From: Minisyncoccota bacterium
GTDB lineage: Bacteria > Patescibacteriota > Minisyncoccia > Phycocordibacterales > GCA-2401445
DNA: 64,000 nt
NCBI GenBank assembly: GCA_040879725.1
Contig: JBBDJV010000020.1
Location: 9,086-73,085 of the forward strand
Reading direction: 5' to 3'
The notes under the pieces were generated by a model. It did no database searches. It had not been told where the DNA came from and saw only the letters and a program-made list of their open reading frames with translations. The position numbers and the translations under genes were made by a program. Below, piece after piece: positions 19,335 to 56,993 of this stretch. The first letter of the stretch is position 1; each line of letters opens with the position of its first letter.

Positions 19335-19341
19335 GAAAGAC

Positions 19342-26701: not shown

Positions 26702-26737
26702 AGCATCACTATAGCATATGCAGTATAACCAAATAAT

Positions 26738-31216: not shown

Positions 31217-32585
31217 AAGAGAGCATAGCAGAGAAATAAAGGAACAACAATGGATTAAGCGTGTAGCGGTGCCGCGCTTCTACTCCCATAGTGGTCTGAA
31301 GTAGAGTCGCACAAAAATAAAGAGTCACGATGCATGCCATAAAAGTAAACTCGTGTTTTCTAAATAACCACATGCCGATAAACGCGCCAACAGAAATTAA
31401 CACCCAGAATATCTTTCCGAACAAAGCAAGTCCGACATAAGGGGTAAATACGTGCTTTCCCAAGGTTTTAAGAACCGCAACAGGACCTTCATTTGAGAGA
31501 ATAAGTGAGAATGAGAGACCTCTCTGTGGTGCGTCAATAAGCCCGTGATGCTTTAATATTTGATGGTAATTACCGGAGAAGAAAAATGTATTGAGTCCTA
31601 TTAGGTACGCAGTAGTATAGGGAACAGGGTTATTAAGTATTACTTCTTTTGATACTGTATTGTAATATTCATTGTTCTTCATACTCCGGCGGTCGTTTTT
31701 GTCAGGCAATCCTCCCTCGTAACGAGTACGAAGCTCTTCAAGTGACTCATCGTATCCTATTCCCTTCGCAACTGCGTTTGTAAATGTCGCGCCATAGGTA
31801 AAGAAATTATACGCCCCGGCAGAGACAAAATCTGCAACACCAAAAACATTTAAGTTTCGTGCTTGCCAGGGCATCATAGCAAACATCATAACCACCACAA
31901 CAAACAAAAGTGCGCCGGTACGGATCCAGACTATTTTCCCCCTCCAATAATCGCGAAGCGTGTACGCCACCAACAAAAGCACACCGAGATAAAGAGCAAC
32001 GGGGCGAATATACAAACTGATTCCGAGTAACACTGCACCTATTCCTAAGTGCATCCAGTGTGTCTTTTCCAGAAATGAGAAAATATAGAGTAACCCTACA
32101 AGAAGTAGTACTGTGGTTAAAATATCAGGGAGCAATACAACACTGTAATACGCCTGCATTGGTTCAAGTACAGTAAGAAGTCCCGCAAAGGTGCTTGTCA
32201 GTACTCCAAAGTGAAGGTATTTACGTGCCAAGAAAAACACAAGCACGCCCACAAGTGTCGAGAGTAGTATTTGTGGAATAGACGCAACCCACAGAGGAAT
32301 GCCAAAATACACAAACGGCATTAGGTATGCAGGATATCCAGGAGGTCGGTATGCATTAGGAAGTCCATCAAACTTATCGTAGATATACCCATCACCCTCA
32401 ACTACATTTTGAGCTAAATTTAAATATTGTGCAGTGTCACCCCAGATAAGAGTATTAGTTCCTCCATATACCAAAAGAGATACCAACAATATTAGGCGAA
32501 TCCCTATTCCTAAACCAAGAATAATTAAAATTGCCTTTTTATTTTCTGTATAAAATTCTTTAATCGAGCTAACAATTTTTTTCAT
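31176..32585 (-). CDS. GT-C family glycosyltransferase (ArnT/PMT-like, GT39/GT83-type)
   Basis: About 11 TM helices and an N-terminal loop with a D-x-D-like YIYDKFDG motif. It is paired with the ArnC-like GT2 upstream, in the manner of GtrB/GtrC. Confidence 0.55.
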   Translation of the reverse strand: MKKIVSSIKEFYTENKKAILIILGLGIGIRLILLVSLLVYGGTNTLIWGDTAQYLNLAQNVVEGDGYIYDKFDGLPNAYRPPGYPAYLMPFVYFGIPLWVASIPQILLSTLVGVLVFFLARKYLHFGVLTSTFAGLLTVLEPMQAYYSVVLLPDILTTVLLLVGLLYIFSFLEKTHWMHLGIGAVLLGISLYIRPVALYLGVLLLVAYTLRDYWRGKIVWIRTGALLFVVVVMMFAMMPWQARNLNVFGVADFVSAGAYNFFTYGATFTNAVAKGIGYDESLEELRTRYEGGLPDKNDRRSMKNNEYYNTVSKEVILNNPVPYTTAYLIGLNTFFFSGNYHQILKHHGLIDAPQRGLSFSLILSNEGPVAVLKTLGKHVFTPYVGLALFGKIFWVLISVGAFIGMWLFRKHEFTFMACIVTLYFCATLLQTTMGVEARHRYTLNPLLFLYFSAMLSYVYAYYIRRRTAL

Positions 32586-37604: not shown

Positions 37605-38159
37605 TTATTTCTGTGCGAATTGCTTCCAATTTTTCACATATGTAAGTGCTGACTGGTACCCAAGTGCTAAGTGTGGATTATCACGCACATAATAATGCTT
37701 AAATAGCCCCTTATTATATAGTGATTGGACAGTAAACTTTGGATCATTCACTGCAACTATTATTTTTTTAGGTTTAAGTTCCTTTCTCAAATCTAGAATT
37801 CCATGAGAAAAATATGGACTATAAACAAGTGCCACATCGCCTCTTTTCCAATCCTCTACAATACCCTTCTTTATCAATTTAATAATTCCACTTGTATCAA
37901 TAGGCAAGTTGTAAAAACAAACATAGCGGTAAAATGATTCAGCTTCAAAGAAACGTTCAGTTACGCCAGTAGCATTCTGATGTGCATCAAAAATATCACA
38001 AAGCCACATAGTGCCTGAACGAGCAACAAGAGTACCTAGAATGAGCGTTTTGCCGTTCTGCAATCCTCTTTCATACTCATCATCAACCCTATCTAATTCA
38101 TCAGCGGTATACTTATGGCGCGAATCCCACGATAAGCAAAGTTTTCCAATTTTTCTCAT
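37605..38159 (-). CDS. Sulfotransferase-like protein (tentative)
   Basis: ILGTLVARSGTMWL resembles the 5'-PSB loop (PKSGTTW/RSGTxxL) of PAPS-dependent sulfotransferases. At 184 aa it is short for the family. Confidence 0.3.
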   Translation of the reverse strand: MRKIGKLCLSWDSRHKYTADELDRVDDEYERGLQNGKTLILGTLVARSGTMWLCDIFDAHQNATGVTERFFEAESFYRYVCFYNLPIDTSGIIKLIKKGIVEDWKRGDVALVYSPYFSHGILDLRKELKPKKIIVAVNDPKFTVQSLYNKGLFKHYYVRDNPHLALGYQSALTYVKNWKQFAQK

Positions 38160-38161: not shown

Positions 38162-39295
38162 CTATGCAATTTTATGTATTATCTCAACAATATCTTCAAC
38201 TGTTGCTAATCGAGGATTATTCATTGCTCTTTCTGCAGAATATTCATCCAGTATAGCATTTTTCGCATCAGCGATAGAAATACCATAATCACGCAAACGT
38301 GTTGAAACCTGAATTGATTCGAAAAACGATTTAAGGGAATCAGCATAGAGAGCATTTTTGCTTCCTGTTATAAAAGAACCCATCTGCTCTACTAAATTAC
38401 GGACATACAAATAACCCCTTGGGTCACTACATGAATTAAGGGTAACTCCTAGATTAAACATAAAAACCTCGGGAAGAAATAGCGCGACAGCTTTTCCGTG
38501 CGGAATTTTATATCGAGATGTTAAGGGATATGACAGTGCATGAGCTAATGTTGTTTTCGTAATATTGATCGCCTTTCCTGCACTATGTGAACCTTGTGCA
38601 ATATTTACTAAAGCATCTTTATCTCCACCACACGCAAGGTAAAGATTTTTATACAAAAGTTTAAACGCATTTTCTGACAACAAAAGAGATTCCTTACTAG
38701 AATTCACCGACCACCACGACTCAATAGACTGACAAAAAGCGTCCACTCCGCTAGCTGCAGTCACTTCCCACGGAGATGAAAAAAGAAACTGAGGATCAAC
38801 AATTGCGTACTCCGGCAACATTTTTTTATCTGCACAAGAGTATTTTTTACCTTTAATATATAAAACGGCAAAATGGGTTGATTCGCTACCCGAACCGGCT
38901 GTTGTTGGGACCGCAATAACTGGCACAGCACTTGTTTTTTCTATACTAGCACCATAACTCACCTCTGAGATTTGCTCTGGCTTATCAGCAAACAAACTAA
39001 TCAATTTCGCCACATCAATCACACTCCCCCCACCAACTGCAATAATTACAGACGAGGTATGTTCACGATATTTCATAACACCTTTCAAGAGATCATCTTC
39101 GGAAGGGTTGATTGAAAAATCATTAAATACTTCAACTTTATAAGGAGCTACGAGCGACATGATTATTTTACGTGCACCCGATGTCTCAAAAGAATTTTTG
39201 CTCGTGACTAAAAAAATATTTTTTACCTTCTGATCTAAAAGAATTTGCGATAAGTGTTCTGTTGAATTTACACCAAAATAACTTTTTTGATTCAT
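38162..39295 (-). CDS. Group III iron-containing alcohol dehydrogenase (candidate phosphonoacetaldehyde reductase)
   Basis: GGGSVIDVAK NAD motif and the Fe-ADH His/Asp pattern. It lies adjacent to ppd and ppm. Confidence 0.6.
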   Translation of the reverse strand: MNQKSYFGVNSTEHLSQILLDQKVKNIFLVTSKNSFETSGARKIIMSLVAPYKVEVFNDFSINPSEDDLLKGVMKYREHTSSVIIAVGGGSVIDVAKLISLFADKPEQISEVSYGASIEKTSAVPVIAVPTTAGSGSESTHFAVLYIKGKKYSCADKKMLPEYAIVDPQFLFSSPWEVTAASGVDAFCQSIESWWSVNSSKESLLLSENAFKLLYKNLYLACGGDKDALVNIAQGSHSAGKAINITKTTLAHALSYPLTSRYKIPHGKAVALFLPEVFMFNLGVTLNSCSDPRGYLYVRNLVEQMGSFITGSKNALYADSLKSFFESIQVSTRLRDYGISIADAKNAILDEYSAERAMNNPRLATVEDIVEIIHKIA

Positions 39296-39306
39296 CTTTT
39301 CAATAC

Positions 39307-40440
39307 TTATTTTTTATTGAGAAATTCCATCAAATCTTTCTTATTTTGATTGGGAGGAATTGTAGGACGACCTAAATCAGATCGTGCTCCTTTTTTAGTT
39401 CGTATTTCAATAAAAATAGGACCTGTGTTTGGTTTACTATCCTTAAAGATTTGTGAAATAGCACTATCAGTATCTGCGTAATATACTTCTTTATAACCAC
39501 ACGCTCTCGCAATTTCACAAAAATTTACAAAAAATCCAGCTGTTTTTTGACCCCCTACTGATTCATGCGCACCATTATTGAACACAATATGTACAAAATT
39601 ACTTGGATGAAATTGACCTATAGTTGCCATTCCACCCAAATGCATAATTGCAGCACCGTCACCATCAAAACAGTAAATATTTTTATTTGGCTTACTTAGT
39701 GCTAAGCCCAATGCGATTTGGGAAGCATGACCCATTGATCCAATAGTCAGAAAATCACAGGCATGACCCATAGATTTCGCATGTCGTATCTCAAACAATT
39801 CACGGGAAAGTTTTCCTGTTGTTGAAACAATCACAGAATTTTTTGGAATTTCCTCTACCACTGAAGTGAGAGCTTGTTCACGTGTAAGTGTGTATTTCTC
39901 CTCTGACTTTGGCTTTGCATGTTTCTCAGCTGAAAATGTGCCTTTGCGAACAAGCAAAGCATGAGGTCTGCATGTTTTCTTTATAGAATCCAACACAGCA
40001 AGTAACTCTTTCGCTGCTTTTTTTTCATCTGACGATAAAACGGTATGAGGTACATTAATTGCATTAAGCACTGCGGGAGTTACTTCACCCATAGTTATAT
40101 GTTGAGGTTCATCACTCACCCCAGGTTCTCCTCTCCAACCAATAAGTAGCAGTGCTGGCATACAATATACCTTCTCGTCCAGAAGCGAGGTTAGAGGGTT
40201 AACTGCATTTCCTAAACCAGAATTCTGCATATATATGAGAGGAACTTTCCCGGTCGCCAAATGATGTCCAGCAGCGATACCAAGTGCAGAGCCTTCATTC
40301 GCGGCTATGATATGTTGGGATGGGTCCAATGTTACATCTATATGCTCACAGAAATCCTTTAAGAGTGAATCCGGAACTCCGGTAAAAAGGTTTACATCAT
40401 TCTCCAAAAGCAATTTTAGAAAAAAATGGGAAGAAATCAT
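39307..40440 (-). CDS. ppd: Phosphonopyruvate decarboxylase (ThDP-dependent)
   Basis: N-terminal FTGVPDSLLKDFC is the Ppd/AepY signature, with a ThDP-binding GDGAA...NNG region; 377 aa. Confidence 0.75.
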   Translation of the reverse strand: MISSHFFLKLLLENDVNLFTGVPDSLLKDFCEHIDVTLDPSQHIIAANEGSALGIAAGHHLATGKVPLIYMQNSGLGNAVNPLTSLLDEKVYCMPALLLIGWRGEPGVSDEPQHITMGEVTPAVLNAINVPHTVLSSDEKKAAKELLAVLDSIKKTCRPHALLVRKGTFSAEKHAKPKSEEKYTLTREQALTSVVEEIPKNSVIVSTTGKLSRELFEIRHAKSMGHACDFLTIGSMGHASQIALGLALSKPNKNIYCFDGDGAAIMHLGGMATIGQFHPSNFVHIVFNNGAHESVGGQKTAGFFVNFCEIARACGYKEVYYADTDSAISQIFKDSKPNTGPIFIEIRTKKGARSDLGRPTIPPNQNKKDLMEFLNKK

Positions 40441-40445
40441 ACAAA

Positions 40446-41783
40446 TTATTTATTCTTTTCATGATTACCTTCAATCAAGGTCAATATTTCTTTGATAGAC
40501 ATGCAATATTTTTCTGAAGCCTCCTTTGACCTTCCATTTTCTAAAATAGCACGTGCGGTGTTAACCATTGCGGGGTAAGCACTTCGAAGTAAATGATTCG
40601 CATAAATAACTATCCTGAAGCCCATTTTCTCTAAATCTGTCTCGTTAAGATGGTTATATGTTGTAGGGACCGCAACAAGTGGAGTGTTGCTTCCAAACTC
40701 CTTATATTTCTTACAAAACTCTTCTATTTCATCAATTTTTTTATCTTTACTATGTATCATTATTCCATCAGCTCCAGCAGCTATATACGCCTTCGCACGC
40801 TTAAGAGCATCATCTACACCTTTACCTAAAATCAAACTTTCAATACGAGCAATGATCATGAAATCTTCAGAAATACGAGCATTCCGACCCACAGCGAGCT
40901 TCTCACAGAAATTTTTTATACTTTCCAATTCCTGTTTAACAGCAGTACCAAACAAGGAATTTCTCTTCAAACCTTTTTTATCTTCAATAATAACCGCAGA
41001 CACGCCCAGCCGTTCAAGTGTTTTTACTGTATAAGGAAAATGCTCAACTAAGCCACCTGTATCGCCATCGTAAATTACAGGCTTGGTAGTAATTTCCAAA
41101 ATATCATGCAGTGTACCAATACGAGATGTTAGATCTACCAATTCAATATCAGGCTTGCCTTTCATAGTCGAATCAGTAAGGCTACTTAACCACATAAAAT
41201 CAAATTCTCTCACAACACCCTTTTTCTCAATCTGCGTATGTTCAGCTATAAGTGCCGATAAACCACTATGAGCTTCAATACCTTTTACTATTGCCTTTGC
41301 GTCTAACAACCGTCTCAATCTTGATATCCTAACACTTGGTGTAACACCAACTTCTTTTAATGCCTTATTGAGCAATGATGACGAAATACCTTCAGTATAA
41401 TTTGGCTCAACCAATACCCCACCCCATTCTTTTAGTAACTTAACAACCTGTGCACGCACCTCTTTTTGAATCCCCTTTTTCCAATCATCACCATGCACAA
41501 CAACATCAGGTTTAACCTTTCTTAAATTTGAAGAATAGTCGAGTGTTTCTTGAGGGATCACTTCACTGACACCAACTATACTCGAAACAATCTCCTTCCT
41601 CTGTTCATATGATAAAAAAGGTAGTCTTTTGTAGCTTGCGATAGCTTTGTCTGTAAGTAGGCCGACAATAACTCTCCCATGTTTTGCACCCTCACGAATA
41701 ATTTTTAAATGGCCAGGATGTATTAAATCAGCACTCATTCCTATGTATACTATCTTTTCTCCCTTTTGTTTTATTTTATTCAT
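40446..41783 (-). CDS. ppm: Bifunctional cytidylyltransferase / phosphoenolpyruvate mutase fusion
   Basis: N-terminal cytidylyltransferase fold ([15 protein letters not shown] HxGH motif). The C-terminal PEP-mutase/ICL-superfamily barrel carries the PEP-mutase-specific [11 protein letters not shown] motif. Confidence 0.75.
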
Positions 41784-42657: not shown

Positions 42658-43253
42658 ACCATTTCAAGTATTCGCTCCTCATCTTCTCCTCCTTTGATAA
42701 AGTAACAGTTCTTATACACCTCTCTACTTTCATTCATAATAATTGAATGTACTTCCAAAACCACCTTTCTCCATTGTACTTCATATTGACTTCCCATAAA
42801 TGAACGCATTCCACGTGCGCGCTTTTTTTGTCTATAAAGCACAGTTTCCCACGGAAGATCAAACATAATATGCATATCAGCTTGAGGCGCAAGCATGAGC
42901 AATTTGCGTATACGCTCGGCAGAGGGAGTACGTTCAAATAATCCTATAATCTGCTGGAGCATACCTTCATCCAACACAATATTTCCCATATTTCTACGAG
43001 CCTCTTGCCACCGTGCAATTCTATTAAACAGCACCCTTAATTTCCACTGAATAAGAAAAAGACCTCTTCCTTCAGTAAGGCAAATCCAGACACAGGTGAT
43101 TGTAAATCTACTATGATTACACAAAAAATAAAAAAAATACCAACAGCGCATAAGGATGTTCTGGTGTCGAGGCGGAGCATACCCACACGCTTCTATTGCG
43201 CGTGCAAATGTGCTTTTCCCCGAGCCCGGTAGACCATACAACTCTATAATCAT
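42645..43253 (-). CDS. P-loop NTPase / small kinase-like protein
   Basis: Walker A YGLPGSGKST within the first 15 residues. Its specific family is unclear. Confidence 0.45.
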   Translation of the reverse strand: MIIELYGLPGSGKSTFARAIEACGYAPPRHQNILMRCWYFFYFLCNHSRFTITCVWICLTEGRGLFLIQWKLRVLFNRIARWQEARRNMGNIVLDEGMLQQIIGLFERTPSAERIRKLLMLAPQADMHIMFDLPWETVLYRQKKRARGMRSFMGSQYEVQWRKVVLEVHSIIMNESREVYKNCYFIKGGEDEERILEMVCSH

Positions 43254-44014
43254 CCTTTAAACGTTATTTTATACGACTCTGAAAAGAAACGAGTAATGAT
43301 ATTCATCTGCATCCACCCGAGTACAAAAAAAAGGAAACGGTCGGCAAAGGCAGAATGTAATCCTGGAAATACAAATGTTACCGGTCGCACCGAAAGTACA
43401 GAAAACCCAACCTCAGACAGTAACAACACAAAGTGTCTGTCATCAATCTGTAATGAGTGAAATTCACTCACATTCTTTTGTCTATTCCATGGACGGCGAT
43501 ACTGTGGTGTTTTGGTAATAATTGATCCTAACGAAGTGGTGTCCATTACTTCACGAACTTTTTTAACCAATGCTTCCTTGTCAGAGAAATATTCAACTGC
43601 ACGAGATGAGAAAAATACAGAAGCTTTTCTTGTTGCGGTATACTCAAGAAAATCAGAGACAATGTATTCAATACCACTTGCTCCCGACAAATTGTCTTTT
43701 GCAAGTTTTATCATCTCATCTGAAATATCAACCACCTGATAGTTCATATCGGGAAACTCATTCAAAAACTCTCTTGTCCAAGTGCCTGGACCTGGACCTA
43801 ACTCAAGATATGATTTAGGCACAGGATTTTTCTTTAGCTCAGAAATAAAATTACACACCGCATGACGAGTCATATCATAACCAGCCTTTCTCTGTGGAGT
43901 AGAAAACCAACGCTCCCTCTCGTACTCTCCTCTATACGTTCCAGGAATCATTGTATTGTATTTCCCTCGCACATCCTCATTTTTCATCACTCTATTGTAT
44001 GCGAAAGACACCAC
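43250..44014 (-). CDS. Class I SAM-dependent methyltransferase
   Basis: LELGPGPGTWT motif I. Confidence 0.65.
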   Translation of the reverse strand: MVSFAYNRVMKNEDVRGKYNTMIPGTYRGEYERERWFSTPQRKAGYDMTRHAVCNFISELKKNPVPKSYLELGPGPGTWTREFLNEFPDMNYQVVDISDEMIKLAKDNLSGASGIEYIVSDFLEYTATRKASVFFSSRAVEYFSDKEALVKKVREVMDTTSLGSIITKTPQYRRPWNRQKNVSEFHSLQIDDRHFVLLLSEVGFSVLSVRPVTFVFPGLHSAFADRFLFFVLGWMQMNIITRFFSESYKITFKG

Positions 44015-44184
44015 TCTCGCAATTTATTCGAGTACAATGTTTATATTATTCTTTGTGCACAGTTTATTAACTTTTAACTTCAGTATTACCTGTCGATTTG
44101 ATGTTATGATTTTATTATAAGATTTGTACCTTAATAGAGTTTATTAACAAGGTTTTTGTTCTATTATCATTTAGTGAAAAATTT

Positions 44185-46649
44185 ATGTATCCAAGTATTA
44201 ACAAACTTTTTTTATTTTCTTTTTGTTACTTACCATTCCGGGAAATCAAATTTATGCAGATAACACCCACTCAATTGAATTTGATGGTAGTAATGATTAC
44301 CTATACACTGCAGACAGCTCATCTCTATCAATCACCCAAGATTTAACAGCTGAAATGTGGGTTAATTTTGACTCCTTTAATACAGATCAAGGAATACTTA
44401 TTTCAAAATATGGGGGCGGTACAAATGAAAGAGCATATCAATTTGGATACTTTAAAAATACTTCTGATGGTAAACAATACTTTGAGAGTAGGATATCTGA
44501 TGATGGTACAGGAATAAACACTACAGTTGTTACACTAGAATATGATCTTGCCACAAGCACCTGGTACCACGTTTCCTTCATTTATAAATCAGCATCAGGG
44601 ACTGTTGATGTGTATCTTGCAACCACAAGTGCTGAGTCACACATACATGCAGGAACAATGTCTGGACATAAGAATTCAATTAAAGACAGCATTTCTCAAT
44701 TTAGAATTGCTTCATCTCACGGCGCAGGTAATGTGAATTATTTTGACGGAAAGATAGATGATGTAAGAATATGGAATAAAGCAAGAGAAGTGAGTAATAT
44801 TAATACCGACTTCAAATCTGAATTAGTTGGTACAGAAGCAAATCTGAAAGGATACTGGCGATTTAACGATACGCTAACTGACCAGACTGCTAATGGAAAT
44901 ACGCTTTCTGATTATGGTGGAACTATTTTTTCTGAATCAAAACCATTTCCAAACCCTCCCTCAGCAGCTACATCACCATACCCCTCTCACTCCTCAACAA
45001 CAGTTGCCACATCAACTAGCCTGTCTTGGAATCCCGGTTCAAATCTTACTCAACAAGGAATCTTTTTTGGCACATCATCTACTATTACAATAAATGACTA
45101 CCAAGGTACATACGGGACATCTACCACAAATTTTGATCCTGGAACATTATCTGCGTCTACTACCTATTACTGGAGAATTGATAGCAATAATCTAGAAGCA
45201 ACAACTACAGGAACTGTATGGGATTTTACAACTACGGCTGAACCAGAAAATACACATTCGATTGCTCTTGACGGTGTAGATGATTATCTTTCTGCACCAG
45301 ATAGCAACTCATTGTCAATAACTGGTGACCTTACTATTGAATTCTGGGTAAAATTCGACTCATTTAATATTGATGATCAAGGAATTCTTGTATCAAAGTG
45401 GGGAGATTATGGGGGAGGAAATAATCAACGTGCATATCAGTTTGGATACTACAAAACATCAGGTGGTATAGGATACTTTGACACCCTCACATCTGCAGAT
45501 GGAACCACTGTTGGCTCGGGGACTGTACAGTACGATCTGTCGACCGAAAAGTGGTACCATCTGGCATTTGTTTACACCGCCGCAAGTGGCACAGTAGACG
45601 TATATGTTGCAACCACGTCTGATTCTAACCATATATTAGCAGGAACTGTAAGTGGACACACAACATCTCTAAAGGATACTGTCTCTGATTTTCAAATTGG
45701 ATCTTCTGACGGATCTGGAAATATTGTTTATTTTGATGGCAACATGGATGAAATACGTGTATGGAATACTGCCAAATCAAAGGAGGAAATTGACTCTGAC
45801 TTTGACACAGAGTTCTTCGAAAGTATGTCTAACTTGCAAGCATACTGGAAACTGAATAATCATTACAGTGACCAGACATCAAACGATAATACGTTGTCCC
45901 AAAATAATGGAGCAAACTTCTCGACAATTGTCCCCTTTCCTGTCTCACCTAATTCCCATGCAATATCACTCAATGGAATTGACCAGTATCTTTCCGCTGT
46001 AGACAGTCACTCGCTTTCTATAACAAGTGACTTAACAGCAGAACTGTGGGTCAAATTCAATTCTTTTAACGAAGACAATCAAGGAGTACTGATATCAAAA
46101 TATGGAAACTATGGTGGTACCGACAACCAAAGATCGTATCAATTTGGTTACTACAAGGATACTTCGAAACTTGACTACAACTTCTTTAATACAAGGACAT
46201 CAACAGATGGAACCGACACAAGTGATCTAAACAGAGCGTATCCTATGGCAACGGGTACATGGTACCATCTTGCTTTTGTATATGATGCATCAGAAGGATG
46301 TGTAGATATATATCTTGCCAATGTTAATGACACTGAACATAGCTTTGTTGGTGCTGAATGCAGACATAAGACTTTACTGAAAGATACAGTGTCTTCATTC
46401 GAGATTGGTTCTTCTGATGGATCTGGCAATGTAGTATACCTTGATGGAGTTGTTGATGAAGTAAGAATATGGTCCAAAACTAGAAGTAAATCAGAGATGG
46501 ATGCTGATTATACTCTCGAATTGACGGGATCAGAAACAGATCTTGAAGCATATTGGAATTTCAACAACACACTCAGTGACATGACATCAAACGGAAATAC
46601 CTTAACAAACAATAACAGTGCAACGTTTATAACCTCTACACCATTCTAG
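44185..46649 (+). CDS. Secreted protein with three tandem LamG/concanavalin-A-like lectin domains; apparent frameshift in a T7 run near the 5' end
   Basis: Three approximately 270-aa repeats each carry the Laminin_G_3 pattern (DG.DDYL...SLS...T.E.WV.FDSF...YQFGY...WYH...D(D/E)VRIWN). The ATG at 44185, preceded by AGTGA, lies in frame +1 relative to the main ORF, which the track starts at TTG 44223. One extra T in the T7 run (44207-44213) would fuse them and create a canonical signal peptide MYPSINKLFFIFFLLLTIPGNQIYA|DNTHS. Confidence 0.6.
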
Positions 46650-46681: not shown

Positions 46682-47344
46682 TTAGAAAAACTTGGTGGGA
46701 ACTTTTACAATGCCTTTTTCTCTATCTTCATATGTCGTATATAGTTTTGGCTCACCAGTCTTTCGAAGTACATAAATAATTTCATACGCAAATCCTGGAT
46801 ACTTTAGAGGATGAAAAGCAAACTTAGTCTTCACTAATCTAAAAGAAACACCAACCTCGTTTTCAAGAGTAAAACCAACCCTATCAGCAAGAGTACGGAC
46901 ATTGTACCGTGTGAAGCTTTGAAAATGTTCTACCCATTTTGCCTTACATACACGATGCTTGAAATGATGGAAAAAGATATTCAAAACATTCTCCCAGTAG
47001 TAATTAGGATTTGGAGTAGAAAAAACAAGTACTCCGTTAGGTTTCAATACTCTATAAAGCTCAGAGAGTAGTTGAATCGGATTGGCAACATGTGCAAGAA
47101 CACACCCCATAGTTACCGCATCAAAAAAACCATCATCATACGGAATATGTCCATCATTGAGATCAACCTGTCGCACCTCTTTATAACTAGCAGGATGGTT
47201 ATCTGTAACAATATCTATTCCATATATTTCCCCTCCCTTCAAATATAGACTTGGATTCTGTGCATACCCAACATCAAGAACCTTTTCGGCATCTGGATAT
47301 ACGGCATATAATGTTTCAGCAATTAACTGACCTTTGCTTTTCAT
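46682..47344 (-). CDS. Class I SAM-dependent methyltransferase
   Basis: VLDVGYAQN motif I and VLVFSTPNP. Confidence 0.6.
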   Translation of the reverse strand: MKSKGQLIAETLYAVYPDAEKVLDVGYAQNPSLYLKGGEIYGIDIVTDNHPASYKEVRQVDLNDGHIPYDDGFFDAVTMGCVLAHVANPIQLLSELYRVLKPNGVLVFSTPNPNYYWENVLNIFFHHFKHRVCKAKWVEHFQSFTRYNVRTLADRVGFTLENEVGVSFRLVKTKFAFHPLKYPGFAYEIIYVLRKTGEPKLYTTYEDREKGIVKVPTKFF

Positions 47345-47977: not shown

Positions 47978-49011
47978 ATGCTCTTTAGTATACGCGGAAT
48001 AAGTGTGGAAAGCTCGTGTTTACGTACCACACTCATGTGTAGCGCCGTTTGTAATTCACGAATGTTGCTAACACCACGTACCCGCTCAAGCGCCTCCACT
48101 AATGACAGAGCGTTTCCTTCCATAAAACTGAGTAGTGATTGATACTCTCCTAATACCTCTCCGCACGCATTATTTGAGGTTATTGGTACCACGCCAACCG
48201 CAAGTGCTTCCAATACCACCTTGTCCAGACTACCGGTAGTACTTGCATGCAGTAGTATATCCATACCCGGAAGAAAATCCGCAAGCTTATTCTGGCTTTT
48301 ACTCCCAACAAAAGAAACTACTGAATGTAGCGCATTTTTCTCCACATACACTTCAAGCGCTTTCTGATATGTATAGTCACGAGGAGTAAGTGGTAAACCA
48401 ACAATAAAGAGATGAACGGGAATTTTTTTTTCTTTGCAGAGCGCCATAGCTTTGAGCAGTAAGAGCTGATCTTTTGCCGGTGAAATCCTGCCAACCGCTA
48501 CGAGATGAAGTGGTGTTGAAAAATCGTGTGGGTTAAAAGAAAAAAGAGTGGTGTCTATACCATGACCTGTTACCACGATTTTTTTACTTGGTATTCTAAA
48601 GCTCTCTTTTGATGCGGTAGTAATAGAGTGTGCGAGAAATGTCGCAACCCGGAGTGAAACAGTTACCGACTTGTGCGTATACCAGAGTACTATTTTCTTC
48701 CCAAGCAACCTCCACAACAGCCCGCCCAATACCACATACTCGGGGTTCATATGCACAAATACCACGTCGTATTCCTTTCGGAGTGTCCATGCGTATGCAT
48801 AGAAATTAAAAATCCTACGGAGTTTTCCCACACCACTTTCTTTTCCTAAACTTTTAACCACAACATTTTCAGGAAATGAATACTCTCCCACACCGAGCGC
48901 CACGACAGAAACTTGCTCCGCGTTCTTTGCGAATTCTTCAATCCACCTATGAAAGAACCCGAGGACAGAATCCTGTCTATTAACGGTTTGTGTCAGTATA
49001 AGAATGCGCAT
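47974..49011 (-). CDS. GT4 glycosyltransferase
   Basis: GT-B C-terminal domain with the E-x7-E region (GSLDKVVLEALAVGVVPI). Confidence 0.65.
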   Translation of the reverse strand: MRILILTQTVNRQDSVLGFFHRWIEEFAKNAEQVSVVALGVGEYSFPENVVVKSLGKESGVGKLRRIFNFYAYAWTLRKEYDVVFVHMNPEYVVLGGLLWRLLGKKIVLWYTHKSVTVSLRVATFLAHSITTASKESFRIPSKKIVVTGHGIDTTLFSFNPHDFSTPLHLVAVGRISPAKDQLLLLKAMALCKEKKIPVHLFIVGLPLTPRDYTYQKALEVYVEKNALHSVVSFVGSKSQNKLADFLPGMDILLHASTTGSLDKVVLEALAVGVVPITSNNACGEVLGEYQSLLSFMEGNALSLVEALERVRGVSNIRELQTALHMSVVRKHELSTLIPRILKSI

Positions 49012-49414
49012 GGTTTTTAAAGGTATGGTTTTTATTCAAAAGGAAGTTTATAACTGAAACAATACAAACCGCGATGGCTTGTGATATAAGTGGTACGAGG
49101 TGTATGCGTTCAATAAACACATGCAGAAGTGCTATGTTTGCAACCAAACCAAAAATAGCAACTCCGGTATACCACACGAACTCTCTTTTTATTTCACCAA
49201 GTATTTTGTGACCGAATGTCCAAAATTTCTGCATCAAAAAATTAACAAAAAGGGCTACAACAAACGCTCCTGTCGCGGCGAGCGGATACCACATTCCTGT
49301 TCGCTCCAACAACCAAAAAATTACAATGCTTAAAAACGCTCCAGTAAGACCCGAAATTCCGTAGCGAAAGAGCAACCTGCGATCTTTAAAATTATCTAAA
49401 AATTTACTGAGCAC
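48980..49414 (-). CDS. GtrA-family small membrane protein
   Basis: Four TM helices and a GtrA-like WTF motif (QKFWTFGHK). Confidence 0.55.
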   Translation of the reverse strand: MLSKFLDNFKDRRLLFRYGISGLTGAFLSIVIFWLLERTGMWYPLAATGAFVVALFVNFLMQKFWTFGHKILGEIKREFVWYTGVAIFGLVANIALLHVFIERIHLVPLISQAIAVCIVSVINFLLNKNHTFKNHAHSYTDTNR

Positions 49415-50273
49415 GTTTCTTTTGTCTTATATAATCCTCGCCGTATACGCCTGACAACTTTTCAATATCTTTGTTGCTCTTCAGAAGAAGCTCGATATTT
49501 TTATCGCGAAGTTCTTCAAGTAATTTCACCCCATGTTCATCTCCCACAAGTGAGCGATACATTTCAGAAAACGCAGAGAAATCTTTTATAAAACAGTTTC
49601 CGCCCGCGCCGCGTCCATTTTTATGAATAGGCGAAAGATGTGTATTGCCGATGCGAGGATCTGCTGAAAGTGCCTGTTCGAGCACCTCCCACTCAAGTCC
49701 TAGCGTAGCAGAAAGGTCGTAGAGCATATTCACAAAAACAACTTTCACAAAAAACCAATTATTTCCCGCGTATTTTATCATCTCCGCGGTTCGTGAATTT
49801 GTAACAAGAACGTACGGAGCATACGGAAGTGCGTCCATAATAGCTTCTGCACGTTCTTTAAATTCACCATTCTCAATCGCCATACCAACAATATTTCTGT
49901 CCGGATGTCCGGCATCGTATTCAGCTGTTGCTTCAGTAAGAAACTCAGGTGAGTGGAATAAAAAATATTCAGAGAATTTTGTTTGGAGTGTTTCGGTAGT
50001 TTTTGGCAACACGGTTGATTTAATAACCACAGATGCACCACGCCCTACGAGAGACAACACTTCTTCAACTGTACTGTAGTCAAAGCCATCCGGAGTACTT
50101 GGGGTAGGAACCGCTATAAAAACCAAGTCGCAGTGCTTTATTCTCTCTCTATTTCCTGCAAATTCAGGATCAAGTCCATAGCGAATAACTTCAAATCCTC
50201 TACTCTCAAAATCATCAGCGTAATTTTTTCCAATATACCCTTGTCCAATGAACCCAATTTTTTTGAATTTCAT
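49404..50273 (-). CDS. Nucleotide-sugar dehydrogenase family protein (UDP-glucose/GDP-mannose 6-dehydrogenase-like, short)
   Basis: N-terminal Rossmann motif IGFIGQGYIGK and the central FSPEFLTEATAEYD...DR motif. At 290 aa from MKFKK it is shorter than canonical UDP-glucose 6-dehydrogenases. Confidence 0.5.
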   Translation of the reverse strand: MKFKKIGFIGQGYIGKNYADDFESRGFEVIRYGLDPEFAGNRERIKHCDLVFIAVPTPSTPDGFDYSTVEEVLSLVGRGASVVIKSTVLPKTTETLQTKFSEYFLFHSPEFLTEATAEYDAGHPDRNIVGMAIENGEFKERAEAIMDALPYAPYVLVTNSRTAEMIKYAGNNWFFVKVVFVNMLYDLSATLGLEWEVLEQALSADPRIGNTHLSPIHKNGRGAGGNCFIKDFSAFSEMYRSLVGDEHGVKLLEELRDKNIELLLKSNKDIEKLSGVYGEDYIRQKKRAQ

Positions 50274-50299
50274 ATGTTTGTATATGAATAGTACTCGAT

Positions 50300-51451
50300 T
50301 TATGACATTTCTGCACGCACACTTTTCCACGCATCACGTGTTTTAAGCACCGCTTGTTCAAATGTTTCCGTTCGAGCAAGAGCCTCTCTTCCTCCCACGC
50401 CATACTTCCTACGAGCCTCAGAATCAGAAAGAGTTTCAACGAGCGCTTCCGCGAGAGCCTCTGCATCATGGCGGGGCACCACCCTGCCGTTTTCTCTGTC
50501 AGTTACCACCTCACCAGCGCATCCCACATCAGTCATAACTACCGACAGTCCACTTGCCAGAGCCTCGACAACCACCCGTGCCCAACCTTCATAGTTAGAA
50601 GAAAGCGCGTATACATCTGCTGTTTTATACAAAGAAGCAACATCGTCACTCCACGCATGCATAACTACGTATTCAGAAACACCAAGCTCTTTAGCACACC
50701 TGCTAATATTTTCTTTTTCATTTCCACTTCCCACGAGCACCAAACGCGCTTCGGGTATTTTTTTCCTAACTTCAACAAATGCCTTTAGAAGCAAAGGTAG
50801 ATTTTTCTGCTTCACCATGCGTCCCACCCACAGAATAAAAGGTCCTGATAAACCCGTCTGTTCACTGAGAGTTGTTTTAGGAGTAGTATTTTTAAAATCA
50901 TCAATATGTGTCACTACCGGAAACCGAACAATCTTTTCAGCCGGTACACCCATTGTCTTTACCGTTCCCTCAATCCTCTTGGAAACAACACGCACCTGGT
51001 TTGCTCGCGGAATAACCAATGTTCCCAGAAAATACCGCACGCGATTAAGCAGTGACTCACACTTCCAGTCTTGTGTGCTAAAGAAATCACCATGCTCCTG
51101 AACCTGAAGAGGAACTCGATACAACCGTGAAAGTAAAAGACCGAGCACACCCGCCTCAAAAGGATCTTGCGTGCTGATAACCCATTCTTTTTCCTTCTGC
51201 TCTTTCAGTATTCTTCGTGAAATTAAAAATGCTTTGAGTAGATGCGTAAACGGTGTTCGCGCATTTGTTGGATACACCACAAGAGAGTCGCTTATGCGCG
51301 TCTTTTGGTGTTTTAGTTTGGCATGAGAAAAAACAACAATATGCTGTTCGAATTCACTCCCTGCGTACGCAACCTGCCTGCGCGCAGAAACAGAATAAGA
51401 AGTAAATAAATCTTTATCGTTTCCTATAACAAGAATTCCTATTCTACTCAT
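50300..51451 (-). CDS. GT4 glycosyltransferase
   Basis: GT-B E-x7-E region (SSNYEGWARVVVEALASGLSVVMTDVG). Start at MSRIGIL gives an ATGA overlap with the upstream gene. Confidence 0.65.
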   Translation of the reverse strand: MSRIGILVIGNDKDLFTSYSVSARRQVAYAGSEFEQHIVVFSHAKLKHQKTRISDSLVVYPTNARTPFTHLLKAFLISRRILKEQKEKEWVISTQDPFEAGVLGLLLSRLYRVPLQVQEHGDFFSTQDWKCESLLNRVRYFLGTLVIPRANQVRVVSKRIEGTVKTMGVPAEKIVRFPVVTHIDDFKNTTPKTTLSEQTGLSGPFILWVGRMVKQKNLPLLLKAFVEVRKKIPEARLVLVGSGNEKENISRCAKELGVSEYVVMHAWSDDVASLYKTADVYALSSNYEGWARVVVEALASGLSVVMTDVGCAGEVVTDRENGRVVPRHDAEALAEALVETLSDSEARRKYGVGGREALARTETFEQAVLKTRDAWKSVRAEMS

Positions 51452-52446: not shown

Positions 52447-53609
52447 ATTTTTTTGATTGAAAGACATAGTTCCATAAAATCTCCAGCAAGTCTATCCCAG
52501 CTATATGTTTCAACCGCAAGTCGTCTCCCTGCTTCGGTAATACTCTTTGCGTGTTCAGGTATTTGCATAAGTTCACTTACCGCGTGAGCAAGCGCCCCGG
52601 GATTATCCGGTTCCACCAAAATACCGGTAACTCGGTCCTCTATAAAATCAACTATCCCACCTACTGGTGTTCCGATAACCGGCAGTCCCGCAGACATTGC
52701 TTCAACAAAAGAATTTCCAAACCCTTCAGACCGGGACGTACGCACAAAAACATCGCTTGCGTGAAGATACTTTGGCAACTCATCTTGCGGAATAGTTGGC
52801 ACAAAATGAACCCTATCAAGTACACGCAACTCTCGCGCTAGCTGTGAAAGCGAGGTTCCCAACGGTCCACTTCCAACAATAAGTACGTGTACTTTTTTAT
52901 TCAGCAGAGGAAGAGTACGTACTAATGTATCAAGTCCGTTTTTATACACCAAACGCGACGTACTCACGAGCACATACGCGGAAGTGGGAATATGAAACTT
53001 CTGACGCAATGCATGCTTTTCCACCTCTGAAGCTCGCGCGGTAAACAGAGAAACATCAACTCCGTTTGGAAGTAGTGTAATAGGCGCTTTGGTGTCAGTC
53101 GCTTCCGCGCGCTTTTTTAAGTAGTTACTGATAACAGTAATGTGTGTTGCGGACCGTATAGGAAAATAGTGGAGCGGTCGAACTAAAAAGCGAAAAAGCA
53201 AATCATTGTTGAATACGTACCGTTTGAGATGTACTTCATCATCTCCCTCTTGCAGTGTGAGAATAAAACTTTTTTTATTTCTCATCCTGTGGAAAAGCGC
53301 TCCCGCAAGTCCTCCGAAACTTGCCATAATACCCCAAACACAATCATATGAAATGTGTCGCGAACGAATGAGAGCAACAAAAAAACCAGTCACCGGAAAT
53401 AGGTATTTATCGATAGGGTGTCCAATACCAACCCTTCGTACAGATACGGAACCGATTTGTTCATGCTTTGAGAGTGCTCGAGAATAGCGCGGAGTAAGCA
53501 TGTCAAAAGCAATACGTTCTTCGGGGATACGTTTTGTTAATTCATGAACCGCAATTTCCGCCCCACCTATGTGGGGAAGATAGTCCGTACTAAAAATTAA
53601 GATTTTCAT
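52443..53609 (-). CDS. GT4 glycosyltransferase
   Basis: N-terminal STDYLPHIGGAE and C-terminal RSEGFGNSFVEAMSAGLPVIGT. Confidence 0.7.
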   Translation of the reverse strand: MKILIFSTDYLPHIGGAEIAVHELTKRIPEERIAFDMLTPRYSRALSKHEQIGSVSVRRVGIGHPIDKYLFPVTGFFVALIRSRHISYDCVWGIMASFGGLAGALFHRMRNKKSFILTLQEGDDEVHLKRYVFNNDLLFRFLVRPLHYFPIRSATHITVISNYLKKRAEATDTKAPITLLPNGVDVSLFTARASEVEKHALRQKFHIPTSAYVLVSTSRLVYKNGLDTLVRTLPLLNKKVHVLIVGSGPLGTSLSQLARELRVLDRVHFVPTIPQDELPKYLHASDVFVRTSRSEGFGNSFVEAMSAGLPVIGTPVGGIVDFIEDRVTGILVEPDNPGALAHAVSELMQIPEHAKSITEAGRRLAVETYSWDRLAGDFMELCLSIKKI

Positions 53610-55117
53610 TCCTCTTCTATAATATCGTACTCTTCGGCTTCTTTCACCTCCTTATGTTTACTAAGTTGTAATGCAAAAACAGGAATAACCGACAGCGCCA
53701 CGAGTCCGATAATCCACCAGACTATACCACCCTCTCTACCCTCTGTCATACTATATGGAACTCCCGCAGTAAGAGTGCTCGTGGAGCCTGTATTTGTCTC
53801 TTCATCGGTTTCACTTATCTCACTATCAGTGTCTTCCTCTGCTTCTGTATTTTGGGGCGCAGGCGCGGAGCCTGCCTCCGCGCCCGCGCTTGGATCAACC
53901 ATTTTCGCAACTGCAACTTTTCTTTGAGTAGGAGCGCTTGCCTGAGGTCTGGAAGATATAGGAACTTCTTTTACCGCTCTGTATTCCGCAACAGGAACAC
54001 CTAGCGTGTCATGAAGCTGTACTGTTTTTCCTTGTGTTATCGGAAAACCAAAAACATATGAACCGAAAGGAGTTGATTGGTATGAAGAAAGAATACTCCT
54101 GGGAGGAAATGCGAACATTTGTTCACCTACATGAATACTCCATGAAGTAATGTCTATTGGATGCTGTGATTCGTTTTTCAACGTAACATACCCGTTAGTG
54201 CCGTACGTAACATCTTCAATAACAATCGTAGGACGCACTACTGTGACAATTACCTGATCCACAGCGTTGTATTCACCGGATGAAACAGAGAGAACGGCGG
54301 TATACTGACCAGGGTAGTGGTAGCGATACAGAATATTTTGTCCCTCAACAAACGTCCCATCTCCCAAATTCCATGTGTACCTAGCAGTTGTAAGTGCTTC
54401 ATTCTGAAACCCGTATCCACGTCCGTGAAAAGTTACCTCGCTTCCCACAAAAACTGTTTTTGAGCTTCCCGCATCTGCGGTTAATCTTTTATTTCCCGGT
54501 TGAAGCAGAGGAACGGAACCATTCCCTTCTCCAGAGTTTTCCTGTGAGCTGTTTTGATTTGTACTTCCTGAATTAGTCTCTTCGTCTGACTCTGTTGTTT
54601 CTTCCGGAAGAGCATGATGGCTATTTGCACTTCCAGGTGTCGGAGCACCCACTCCCCAAGTGCCTTGTAGCATCTGTAGTGTATTACCATCTCCATTTTC
54701 TCCAAGATTTGTGTCATACGTAACCTCGAAGAGAACTGTTTTATCGCCGTCTGCAAGTGAAAGAGTCTCTCCATCATTTTTTAATGAAAACGAACTATCG
54801 AACAACACACCACTCCACCCAGGATTATCACTAAGAAATGTTTGTGCGTCATCCGCAATAACAGCGTAGCTACCTGCTTCCATCTGTGTTCCACCTTGGA
54901 ATTCATGTATACCGTGATACACACCTCCTTCAAGAAAGGTGTACTCGGTAAGTGTGAGTGGTTCTGTTGTGTATACCTCTATCCATTCATGCTTCCCATC
55001 TCCTCCGGGGAAATCATACATAATTTCTGTTATCGAAAGAGACGCGTGAGAAAAAAGCGGAACGATGTACAGTGCGAAACTAAAAATTATTATAAAACTA
55101 TTGCGAGTCCTCACCAT
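53606..55117 (-). CDS. Cell-surface protein: signal peptide, lamin-tail domain, acidic linker, PKD domain, second LTD-like domain, C-terminal TM anchor
   Basis: SITEIMYDFPGGDGKHEWIEVYTTE is the lamin-tail-domain signature. YTWNLGDGT...YPGQYTAVLSVS is a classic PKD motif. The C-terminal WWIIGLVALSVIPVFAL helix is followed by a KHKE basic stop-transfer. Confidence 0.6.
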   Translation of the reverse strand: MVRTRNSFIIIFSFALYIVPLFSHASLSITEIMYDFPGGDGKHEWIEVYTTEPLTLTEYTFLEGGVYHGIHEFQGGTQMEAGSYAVIADDAQTFLSDNPGWSGVLFDSSFSLKNDGETLSLADGDKTVLFEVTYDTNLGENGDGNTLQMLQGTWGVGAPTPGSANSHHALPEETTESDEETNSGSTNQNSSQENSGEGNGSVPLLQPGNKRLTADAGSSKTVFVGSEVTFHGRGYGFQNEALTTARYTWNLGDGTFVEGQNILYRYHYPGQYTAVLSVSSGEYNAVDQVIVTVVRPTIVIEDVTYGTNGYVTLKNESQHPIDITSWSIHVGEQMFAFPPRSILSSYQSTPFGSYVFGFPITQGKTVQLHDTLGVPVAEYRAVKEVPISSRPQASAPTQRKVAVAKMVDPSAGAEAGSAPAPQNTEAEEDTDSEISETDEETNTGSTSTLTAGVPYSMTEGREGGIVWWIIGLVALSVIPVFALQLSKHKEVKEAEEYDIIEEE

Positions 55118-56993
55118 TGATCACTTTTTTCAAAGTTTCTTCTGATATTTCTCTCTTGGTAGTAGACGCTTCTTTATCTGATTCTTTTTTCCCTTGTTCT
55201 TTACCTATTTGTTCCGTTTGATTTGGTTCTTCACTGTTCTGTTCATTTGGAGTATTTTTTAGCAGTGACGCCAAAGCACTTCTTAACTCATTCTTCTTTT
55301 CTTCACTTGGACCTTTAGTGTCTTGGAAGACACGCTGTTTCTCTTTCTTCTGAAGAATTGTAAGCGACAAAGGTTTGTCTTGTTGCTCTGGTGTGGCAAC
55401 ATTTTCTTGTGTGTGCTCGGTGGTATTTTGATTTGAAGAATGTTCTGAAAAATGTTGCGAAGAGTGTTCTGGATCCTGCGCAAACGTCAGTGGTGTTGCG
55501 GGAGTTTTGGGCATATTTTGCTTGCGAATGAAGTTGTTTTTACTCCCAGTATCTTTTTGATCATATCGAGGGCGAGCGGTGTTTGGTGCACTCTCGCTAC
55601 CGTGCTGTCGGTTATTTCTGTCGTTTTGTACTCGACGGTCCTGGCCATTTCCTTGCGAAGATTTTGCGGGAGCGGACGTAGGAGCAAGAAGTACTCGAAC
55701 CTCATTTTCAACAATCGCTCGAGGTCGAGAAAACGCTTTTCGCGATATCTCAATTATTTCTTCTTTCTGGCTTATTTCAGGTCGAGGGATCGGAGGAATG
55801 GTTCGCGCTGAAAATGGCTGAGAACCCACACCGTCAATCATGAGTTTTAGATATATTTGAGCAAAATTGAGATTTACCAAATCTTCTGCGAGGAACGTAG
55901 GTGAAAATTCTTTTTCGAGTGTTTCCGCATCGTATGCACCCACACGAAAGGTTATCATTGTACCCACGTTTCCAAAAACCGCAGCGCGAACCTCTTCGGA
56001 CATCTGCTCAATGTACTGATGCGCCATTGTGAGATTGAGTTTATATTTTCGAGCTTCAGATAGAATGTCTGCAAATGACTCGTTTGCAAAAGACTGAAAC
56101 TCATCCACGTAGAGATAGAAATTAGGAAGATCTTTTTTCAGCACACCTTCATCAATATCCGCTCGAGACATTGCTGCTAGGTATATTTTAGTAATAAGCA
56201 TTGAGCCAATAAGGTTTGCATTCGCTTCACCCACTCGCCCCTTTGAAAGGTTTACGATAATTATTTTTTTCTCGTCCATCATTTTTCTCAGATCAAATGA
56301 TGACTTTGGCTGTCCGATAATATTCCTGATAAGCGGGTTTGAGGTAAACTGTCCTACTTTGTTTTGGATAGCAGGTGTTGCTTCCGCAGTAAAACGGTCA
56401 GTATAGTTTGCAAACTCATCTACCCAAAAAGCTCGGACAGACGCGTCTTGTATATTATCTACCACTTTTTTTCTAAAGTGTTTATCCGAGAGCATCCTGT
56501 TTACCGAAAGAAGAGTGGCGTTTGGATATTCCAGAAGTGCTAAGAGCGTATTGTTTAAAATGTATTCCATGCGGGCGCTCCACGCATCAGCCCAAATCTT
56601 CTTAAACGTTGACATAAGACCAGAGACAACCAAATGGCGCTTGTCATACCCTACGTCTTCCATAATGTTAAATGAAATAGGGTTTTCCAAATCAAAAGGA
56701 GCGAAATACATAACATCCTGTCTTCGCTCTTGCGGAACATAGTCGAGTAAAAGATCAGCAGTCTGACCGTGCGGGTCGATAAATGCCATACCTTCACCAT
56801 TTTTCATGTCCTGCACTGCCATGTTTTCAAGCAGTGTGGATTTACCCATGCCCGTTTTCCCTATCACATAGACATGACGGGTTCGGTCTTTTGCTTTAAT
56901 GCCAAAGGGAATGCATTTGTTACGTGCATCTGTCTCGGCAAAATAGGTTACTCGCTCTTCGTTATACATTAGGTTTAGTATATCACTATACAA
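55098..56993 (-). CDS. VirD4/TraD/TraG-type (type IV coupling protein-like) P-loop ATPase, soluble, with a 220-aa disordered polar C-terminal tail
   Basis: Walker A VIGKTGMGKST and Walker B FYLYVDEFQSF. The LTMAHQYIEQM...FGNVGTMITFRVG block matches the T4CP C-terminal (TraG-D_C-like) pattern. TTG start at 56993, with an alternative ATG at 56969. Confidence 0.5.
   Translation of the reverse strand: MYSDILNLMYNEERVTYFAETDARNKCIPFGIKAKDRTRHVYVIGKTGMGKSTLLENMAVQDMKNGEGMAFIDPHGQTADLLLDYVPQERRQDVMYFAPFDLENPISFNIMEDVGYDKRHLVVSGLMSTFKKIWADAWSARMEYILNNTLLALLEYPNATLLSVNRMLSDKHFRKKVVDNIQDASVRAFWVDEFANYTDRFTAEATPAIQNKVGQFTSNPLIRNIIGQPKSSFDLRKMMDEKKIIIVNLSKGRVGEANANLIGSMLITKIYLAAMSRADIDEGVLKKDLPNFYLYVDEFQSFANESFADILSEARKYKLNLTMAHQYIEQMSEEVRAAVFGNVGTMITFRVGAYDAETLEKEFSPTFLAEDLVNLNFAQIYLKLMIDGVGSQPFSARTIPPIPRPEISQKEEIIEISRKAFSRPRAIVENEVRVLLAPTSAPAKSSQGNGQDRRVQNDRNNRQHGSESAPNTARPRYDQKDTGSKNNFIRKQNMPKTPATPLTFAQDPEHSSQHFSEHSSNQNTTEHTQENVATPEQQDKPLSLTILQKKEKQRVFQDTKGPSEEKKNELRSALASLLKNTPNEQNSEEPNQTEQIGKEQGKKESDKEASTTKREISEETLKKVINGEDSQ

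Follow-up and report, generated by a model that had tools for sequence, protein, structure and literature searches.

A conserved LamG protein, probably separated from its signal peptide by recent loss of one T from a T run, in a surface-glycan locus of a Minisyncoccota bacterium

The DNA analysed here, a window of 64,000 nt from the 75,467-nt contig JBBDJV010000020.1 in the metagenome-assembled genome, labelled Candidatus Paceibacterota, of an uncultivated and very small Minisyncoccota bacterium, carries on its plus strand at positions 44185-46649 a gene for a protein with three tandem LamG domains, which lies within a large minus-strand island of glycan-related genes. It was found that the start codon and the first residues of the signal peptide are read in one frame, while the hydrophobic core, the cleavage site and the whole mature protein are read in another, the two frames being 1 nt apart at a run of seven T residues. 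The comparison with homologues, in which the protein is encoded in a single frame, and the recovery of the same T run by a second assembler make it probable that a genuine and recent loss of 1 nt from the T run cut a conserved, secreted LamG protein off from its signal peptide. An ordinary mutation of recent date is the most likely cause of the frame break, and the data do not show a designed genetic switch. An earlier note on this DNA had described a secreted multi-LamG protein, the restoration of its signal peptide by one additional T and a link with glycan synthesis, and in these points it stood; it had also offered an assembly error, which is now unlikely, programmed frameshifting, which was not supported, a phase switch, for which no positive evidence was obtained, and regulation through a repeated 11-mer, the case for which is weak.

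The annotated open reading frame (ORF; 44223..46649, + strand, by ORF calling) is opened by TTG 44223 and runs through 808 codons, with no stop codon in any of them, to the stop at 46649; its product is recorded as MEX0931930.1, 'LamG domain-containing protein'. Upstream of it a start candidate, ATG at 44185-44187, is found in a frame that differs by 1 nt from the LamG frame, and the run of seven T (T7, 44207..44213, + strand) stands between the ATG and the TTG; direct reading confirmed all three positions as they had first been reported. The LamG frame (frame 0) contains a TAA stop at 44199..44201 on the plus strand, upstream of the T run, and therefore no longer in-frame start is possible. 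The frame opened by ATG 44185 reads MYPSINKLFLFSF... and ends after 53 codons at TAA 44344-44346. The signal-peptide coding region (44185..44258, + strand) is thereby split, the ATG and the n-region (MYPSINK) being in frame 1, and the hydrophobic core with the cleavage site (..FFLLLTIPGNQIYA|D) in frame 0.

If the run is extended to T8, the ATG and LamG frames become one and the product reads MYPSINKLFFIFFLLLTIPGNQIYA|DNTHS. By simple metrics this corrected N-terminus has an n-region charge of +1, a hydrophobic run of 11 residues and I/A at positions -3/-1, and from the annotated TTG start merely a 5-residue hydrophobic run remains. The tripartite n-h-c layout of Sec and signal peptidase I (SPase I) substrates, with small residues at -3/-1 before the mature domain, is present only in the sequence with the additional T; in the window allele the signal peptide is out of frame with the mature protein. 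An insertion in the adjoining T4 or T5 runs would likewise rebuild a good signal peptide, and the T7 run is, judged from the sequence, the most likely site of the lesion and not the sole possible one.

Five homologues, P0002 (70% identity), P0003 (46%), P0006, P0008 and P0009, begin with a signal peptide that can be aligned to the corrected window sequence, and all of them share Ala at -1, Asn at +2 and Ser at +5; in the close homologues the motif N-[ST]-H/K-S follows just past the cleavage site. The close homologues with an intact signal peptide include the orthologue from the syntenic locus L001 (70% identity), and a signal peptide is also present in a more distant relative from the Saccharibacteria locus L024. 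The signal-peptide DNA of L001 contains T8 and T7 runs, both in frame, and that of L024 and of a third related locus, L002, contains no such T tract. Since the relatives have a single intact frame, the ancestral state was therefore one frame, and the window allele is 1 nt short of it. The matching signal peptides in the five aligned homologues and in L024 support the restoration by one T that had been claimed, and lack of the signal peptide in orthologues, which was to be looked for as a sign to the contrary, was not observed.

In the sequence of events proposed, the gene would be orthologous to genes for a multi-LamG (lectin-type) protein that is exported through Sec, is unanchored and is a conserved member of a Paceibacterota surface-glycan locus. 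In the sampled population a 1-nt shortfall, most simply a change from T8 to T7 through replication slippage, would leave the start codon and the n-region out of frame with the hydrophobic core and with the mature protein. The sequenced allele would then be OFF or strongly hypomorphic for secretion, and the same T tract could revert. The lesion appears to be evolutionarily very recent because the 808 downstream codons are still open; put more cautiously, an otherwise intact ORF of 2.4 kb means that it is very recent or reversible. MEX0931930.1 would accordingly be annotated more correctly as the 5'-frameshifted allele of a secreted protein than as a cytoplasmic LamG protein of 808 aa.

The suggestion that the T7 run is an assembly error could be compared with data from Logan, in which a different assembler worked directly on Sequence Read Archive (SRA) run SRR27977663. 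The relevant Logan contigs were reached via a 202-aa neighbour and the convergent methyltransferase, and their gene caller also opens the LamG ORF at the TTG. Contig SRR27977663_1705904 (12,691 nt), of which 8,818 nt were compared (L084), agrees with the window at 100% identity with no gap and reads the identical T7; a second contig of the same run matches the window over 3,897 nt, again 100% identical and gapless, which brings the exact agreement to about 12.7 kb in total. Such exactness in k-mer-based contigs implies that the reads were probably accurate. The other genes of the window, about 50, are unbroken. Between 35659 and 55102 the window is collinear with L001, and 19 genes align as single-frame high-scoring segment pairs, the break occurring in the LamG gene alone. 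In Pfam scans of about 48 window ORFs mostly all or nearly all of the profile length was matched, and no family was split across adjacent ORFs. A census of A/T homopolymers in the whole 64-kb window gave 67 runs of at least 7 nt; the length is exactly 7 nt in 59 of them, and the remaining eight are 8 nt or longer. Seven of the eight longer runs sit in frame within intact ORFs, which include secA (run at 19327-19334), a Mur ligase gene (61275-61282), a gene for a Ppd-like thiamine pyrophosphate (TPP) enzyme and a family 4 glycosyltransferase (GT4) gene with T9 (48423-48431). The identical T7 from the second assembler, together with the lack of any other broken gene, therefore makes an artefact of assembly or polishing unlikely. 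Systematic under-calling of homopolymers by a long-read assembly was rejected, since the about 50 other genes show no frameshift. A second frameshift was suspected at 9570-11518, where three ORFs overlap and a C6 run occurs at 10443-10448, and was rejected, as the ORFs encode three complete unrelated domains, MYG1, VTT and holin.

Some observations weigh against a genuine deletion. Both assemblies probably share one read set, and a systematic read error at the tract is possible; an intact ORF of 2.4 kb after the frameshift would also be expected from a sequencing error or from a reversible switch; and a T8 allele of the sampled population was not found in the collections searched. Exact-pattern scans for T6 to T9 gave 0 matches in genome contigs and 0 in metagenome contigs, and the scan with a 26-mer pattern of the mature region gave 0 matches, therefore no independent population was available in which T7 and T8 could be compared. 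The population was found in one SRA run only, SRR27977663, and a literature search for this run number returned nothing. The exact look-up of P0001 in the contig index and that of the divergent methyltransferase with two alternative starts (254 aa and 245 aa) returned no record, and megablast of the region against plasmids gave no match.

Of the other explanations, an error of sequencing or consensus calling, by which the organism would truly be T8 with an intact signal peptide and T7 an under-called homopolymer, is considered unlikely, though the least unlikely of them. A 1-nt homopolymer shortfall is the classic type of error, the remainder of the LamG ORF is perfect and the population is known from one run alone; however, T7 was read by two different assemblers in sequence otherwise identical over 12.7 kb, which speaks for accurate reads, none of the other 66 A/T runs of at least 7 nt visibly breaks a gene, and runs of 8-9 nt are in frame in essential genes. 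It is quite unlikely that the tract is an evolved phase-variable (contingency) switch, in which slipped-strand changes between T7 and T8 would turn the export of a surface lectin on and off in the population, as had been put forward. The tract does lie in the signal-peptide coding DNA of a surface-protein gene within a glycan locus, the ORF of the OFF allele is otherwise intact, the L001 orthologue retains T8 and T7 tracts at this position, phased ON, and bacteria of the Candidate Phyla Radiation (CPR) are episymbionts whose LamG/concanavalin A (ConA)-like proteins are generally proposed to be adhesins (PMC11310336). In a contingency locus the tract is longer or more mutable than the background, whereas T7 is not unusual among the 67 runs counted in the window, and longer runs occur in secA and the Mur ligase gene, which cannot be contingency genes. 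T runs are expected anywhere a Phe/Leu-rich hydrophobic core is encoded in a genome of 41% GC, and those of L001 are present because of this; no such tract is present in L002 and L024. Length heterogeneity was not seen in the two assemblies of the one run or in the T6-T9 pattern scans, and a literature search on phase variation in the CPR found no homopolymer case described, yielding a hypervariable repeat gene in a Gracilibacterium. Phase variation was thus not demonstrated, and no positive evidence for a slipped-strand switch was obtained. In Neisseria pilC (a G tract of about 11-13 G) and opa (many CTCTT pentamers) a simple-sequence tract likewise lies in the leader-peptide coding DNA of a surface protein, and a frame change switches the exportable product; these tracts are long and hypermutable with documented heterogeneity, whereas the window run is T7/T8, at background, with no heterogeneity observed. 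Similarly, the established contingency genes for capsule, lipooligosaccharide and glycosylation in Campylobacter jejuni and Helicobacter pylori resemble the window gene in having a homopolymer frameshift within a gene of a surface-glycan locus, but their tracts are mostly poly-G/C of at least 8 nt and enriched in such loci, while in the window longer A/T tracts occur in housekeeping genes. The fuller proposal that T7/T8 is a working slipped-strand export switch, the pentraxin/LamG-type units binding the locus's own phosphonate- or teichoic-acid-type glycan and thereby holding the protein on the cell, has only a slim chance of being correct. If T7/T8 heterogeneity were real, it would be the first case of homopolymer phase variation in the CPR, and the switch the first homopolymer contingency locus described there.

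Programmed recoding would give the exported protein routinely from the T7 allele, either by -1 frameshifting on U_UUU_UUA or by transcriptional slippage that adds a U. The heptamer T_TTT_TTA at 44208..44214 (+ strand) indeed has the slippery X_XXY_YYZ pattern in zero-frame phase, as judged from codon phase, and so would allow ribosomes in the ATG frame to slip in tandem by -1; the resulting product, MYPSINKLFLIFFLLLTIPGNQIYA, is still a good signal peptide by simple metrics, and 'savior indel plus low-level compensatory frameshifting' is among the categories already described (PMC5009743). A stimulatory element, whether a downstream structure or an upstream Shine-Dalgarno (SD)-like sequence, was not found, however. 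The RNA downstream of the heptamer folds with z -0.79, 44 of 200 shuffles folding as well, the wider fold around it is worse than that of shuffles (z +0.96), and Rfam over the whole window together with a sensitive local scan gave no match (E of 1 or less); a tRNA search of the window also returned none. Frameshifting at stimulator-free heptamers in E. coli amounts to no more than 2-10 times the background of about 0.055% (PMC4066793), and the runs for which transcriptional slippage has been described in bacteria consist of 9 A or T (PMC5009743). The two-frame arrangement is not conserved among orthologues, P0002, P0003, P0006, P0008 and P0009 being encoded in a single frame, nor is the 53-aa zero-frame product. 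HIV-1 gag-pol with its U_UUU_UUA, bacterial dnaX and IS911/IS3 (PMC4066793, PMC5009743) are comparable in the identical heptamer, its correct phase and the fusion of a short upstream ORF to a long one; the window differs from them in that a stimulator such as a pseudoknot, a hairpin or an SD upstream is missing, the arrangement is not conserved and the zero-frame product is not a useful one. The rescue by poly(A/T) slippage in Buchnera and Blochmannia, as cited in PMC5009743, is alike in the reduced, AT-leaning, symbiont-type genome and in a gene that is intact but for one 1-nt indel within an A/T run, but in that account it concerns runs of 9 or more and the window run is 7. Programmed recoding is consequently held to be extremely improbable, the heptamer is probably incidental, and non-programmed slippage would furnish the T7 allele with at most a trace of compensatory exportable product. 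Another way to make a product without any repair of the frame, namely initiation as annotated at TTG 44223, giving a non-exported protein, or at the near-cognate ATT 44214, giving the short uncharged signal peptide MFFLLLTIPGNQIYA, is very improbable. The signal peptide of P0006 is also without a charged n-region and the peptide from the ATT start has an 8-residue hydrophobic run; however, neither TTG nor ATT is accompanied by an SD-like sequence or promoter support, the TTG leaves a hydrophobic run of only 5 residues, AUU initiation is rare, and the homologues place the start upstream.

The three tandem LamG domains reported earlier were recovered by Pfam as three stretches of Laminin_G_3 (PF13385; E 6.7e-60, 202 bits versus a gathering cut-off of 27.6), whereas the repeat length of about 270 aa had to be revised: the repeat unit is 231-233 aa, and a separate module of about 98 aa is present in addition. 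The units comprise residues 13-243 (44259..44951, + strand), 342-573 (45246..45941, +) and 576-808 (45948..46646, +), show 50-57% mutual identity, and each of them starts with N-[ST]-H-[SA] and finishes with PF(P); the third is missing from the L001 orthologue. Between units 1 and 2 lies the Ser/Thr-rich module (residues 244-341; 44952..45245, +), which is 40% identical (E 1e-16) to the repeated unit of P0018. The P0018 repeats in turn show weak matches to Ig_Rha78A_N and Pur_ac_phosph_N, that is, to domains of the Ig/FN3-like type; a direct Pfam scan of the 98-aa insert matched no family. The two Logan contigs from SRR27977663 break inside unit 3, overlapping by only 15 nt at 46448-46462, on the conserved DGxxDEVRIW motif; a branch of the assembly graph caused by the repeats, strain variation or low coverage could each account for this break.

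An AlphaFold2 model of unit 1, built on an alignment of 30 repeat-unit sequences, was all-beta with a mean predicted confidence (pLDDT) of 94.6 and confirmed the jelly-roll that structure prediction of one repeat had been proposed to reveal. Foldseek matched it with probability 1.00 to LamG and pentraxin structures, the best matches in the PDB being the LamG-like domain of PAPP-A (TM-score 0.74), the putative carbohydrate-binding protein BACOVA_03559 (4dqa) and pentraxins; over these the predicted jelly-roll likeness corresponds to TM-scores of 0.6-0.74. No lipobox, C-terminal transmembrane segment or sortase motif was noticed on reading the 808-aa sequence. Against the L001 orthologue dN is 0.21-0.24 with dS saturated, which points to long-term purifying selection. 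The protein is like the secreted LamG/concanavalin-like surface proteins of CPR and DPANN (PMC11310336) in its PF13385 domains, its signal peptide and its CPR host lineage; unlike them, the window family has its own 232-aa unit with the N-[ST]-H-S start and PF(P) end and sits in a locus of glycan, phosphonate and teichoic-acid-type genes. From sequence and genomic context the LamG units may bind a ligand, carbohydrate or other, and the mature protein would be a secreted, lectin-type surface component that either binds the glycan of the locus or is glycosylated by the GT-C enzymes of the locus.

The LamG gene is the only plus-strand gene over about 52 kb (9570-61620) when ORFs of at least 120 aa that are not nested antisense in a minus-strand gene are counted; the earlier description of a lone plus-strand gene was correct in kind, and its span of 30 kb was too short. 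The glycan island, at roughly 20992-55117, includes Wzy_C-TPR, NeuB, a CMP-type cytidylyltransferase, a HAD phosphatase, two TagF-like glycerophosphotransferases, many methyltransferases, a pair of family 2 glycosyltransferase (GT2) and PMT_2 genes, a Wzx-type flippase, GT4 genes, a fusion of phosphoenolpyruvate (PEP) mutase and cytidylyltransferase, a phosphonopyruvate-decarboxylase-like TPP enzyme, an iron-type alcohol dehydrogenase (Fe-ADH), a polysaccharide deacetylase, GtrA and a UDP-glucose dehydrogenase-like gene. The immediate neighbours of the LamG gene, identified by Pfam and synteny, are a convergent methyltransferase gene (46682..47344, - strand), which is the best-conserved neighbour (87% identity in L001, 63% in L002), and a divergent methyltransferase gene (43250..44014, - strand), which shares with it an intergenic region of 170 nt and 24% GC.

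This linkage of the LamG gene to a glycan locus is kept in three Paceibacterota genomes and recurs in Saccharibacteria. In L001 the LamG gene stands beside the same methyltransferases and deacetylase in the orientation seen in the window; in L002 it stands beside the same genes in a rearranged locus and is co-directional with its neighbours. In the Saccharibacteria metagenome-assembled genome (L024, 3456-12201) a tight co-directional array contains GT2, PMT_2, the signal-peptide-bearing LamG gene, a YfhO-like gene, GtrA and Wzy_C-TPR; the gene kinds of this array lie scattered in the island of the window (30284-32585, 48980-49414 and 20992-23232). A repeat-alignment search for related loci gave, among the matches listed, relatives of at most 38% identity in many phyla. 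When the loci listed were grouped by record title and a homologue of a window island protein was sought within 6 kb of the LamG gene, one was present in 5 of 6 loci with titles naming a CPR group, 1 of 8 from an unclassified 'bacterium' and 1 of 66 from other phyla, a contrast between CPR and other phyla that is confounded by phylogenetic distance. The functional link that had been suggested between the LamG protein and glycan synthesis is supported by the conserved linkage in L001 and L002 and by the Saccharibacteria operon. Signal-peptide-bearing LamG-repeat proteins thus appear as recurrent, conserved members of extracytoplasmic glycosylation loci in the CPR (Paceibacterota, Saccharibacteria), and the family is a candidate glycan-bound surface lectin or glycosylation substrate, of interest for the poorly understood CPR cell surface and for host attachment.

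In the intergenic region upstream of the ATG the 11-mer AGTTTATTAAC occurs exactly twice, as reported, at 44061..44071 and 44138..44148 on the plus strand, with no further copy in the window. For a region of 170 nt and 24% GC, 4-5% of simulations produced a direct repeat of 11 nt, and 1.5% of the window tiles contain one; the repeat is only marginally beyond chance. The first copy is inside a block conserved with L001 (44052-44071) and the second falls in a stretch missing from L001. The evidence for the proposed regulator site is weak. A promoter scan found no sigma-70-like promoter upstream of ATG 44185 on the plus strand. The conserved block, TTTGTrCACAGTTTAyyAmC (window 44052-44071, L001 9917-9936), is situated at the head of the divergent methyltransferase gene; the GTG start called for the L001 methyltransferase overlaps it and is possibly mis-called.

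Several other parts of the window deserve mention. A phosphonate cassette at 38162-41783 is composed of the Fe-ADH (38162-39295), the phosphonopyruvate-decarboxylase-like TPP enzyme (39307-40440) and the PEP mutase-cytidylyltransferase fusion (40446-41783); a syntenic copy is present in L001 and none in L002. Its gene content suggests a CPR surface glycan decorated with hydroxyethyl- or aminoethyl-phosphonate. The minus-strand array at 23350-29535 carries NeuB, the HAD phosphatase and the CMP-type cytidylyltransferase of a nonulosonic-acid pathway, followed by the two TagF-like glycerophosphotransferases, a pair predicted to serve teichoic-acid-type polymer synthesis in the same array. The ORF at 37605-38159 (184 aa) has in L001 a counterpart of 302 aa that is alignable over residues 1-178 only; as the next gene is 2 nt away and no sequence is left over, this is a true difference of architecture and no frameshift. 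The UDP-glucose/GDP-mannose dehydrogenase-like ORF at 49404-50330 (308 aa) contains only N-terminal profile positions 72-180 and the central domain, is without the C-terminal domain, and is truncated alike in L001 (305 aa). At 53606-56993 a protein with a lamin-tail domain and PKD precedes a VirD4/TrwB-like coupling ATPase, which lies immediately upstream of the GT4 genes, and this pair is conserved in L001 at 18750-21767.

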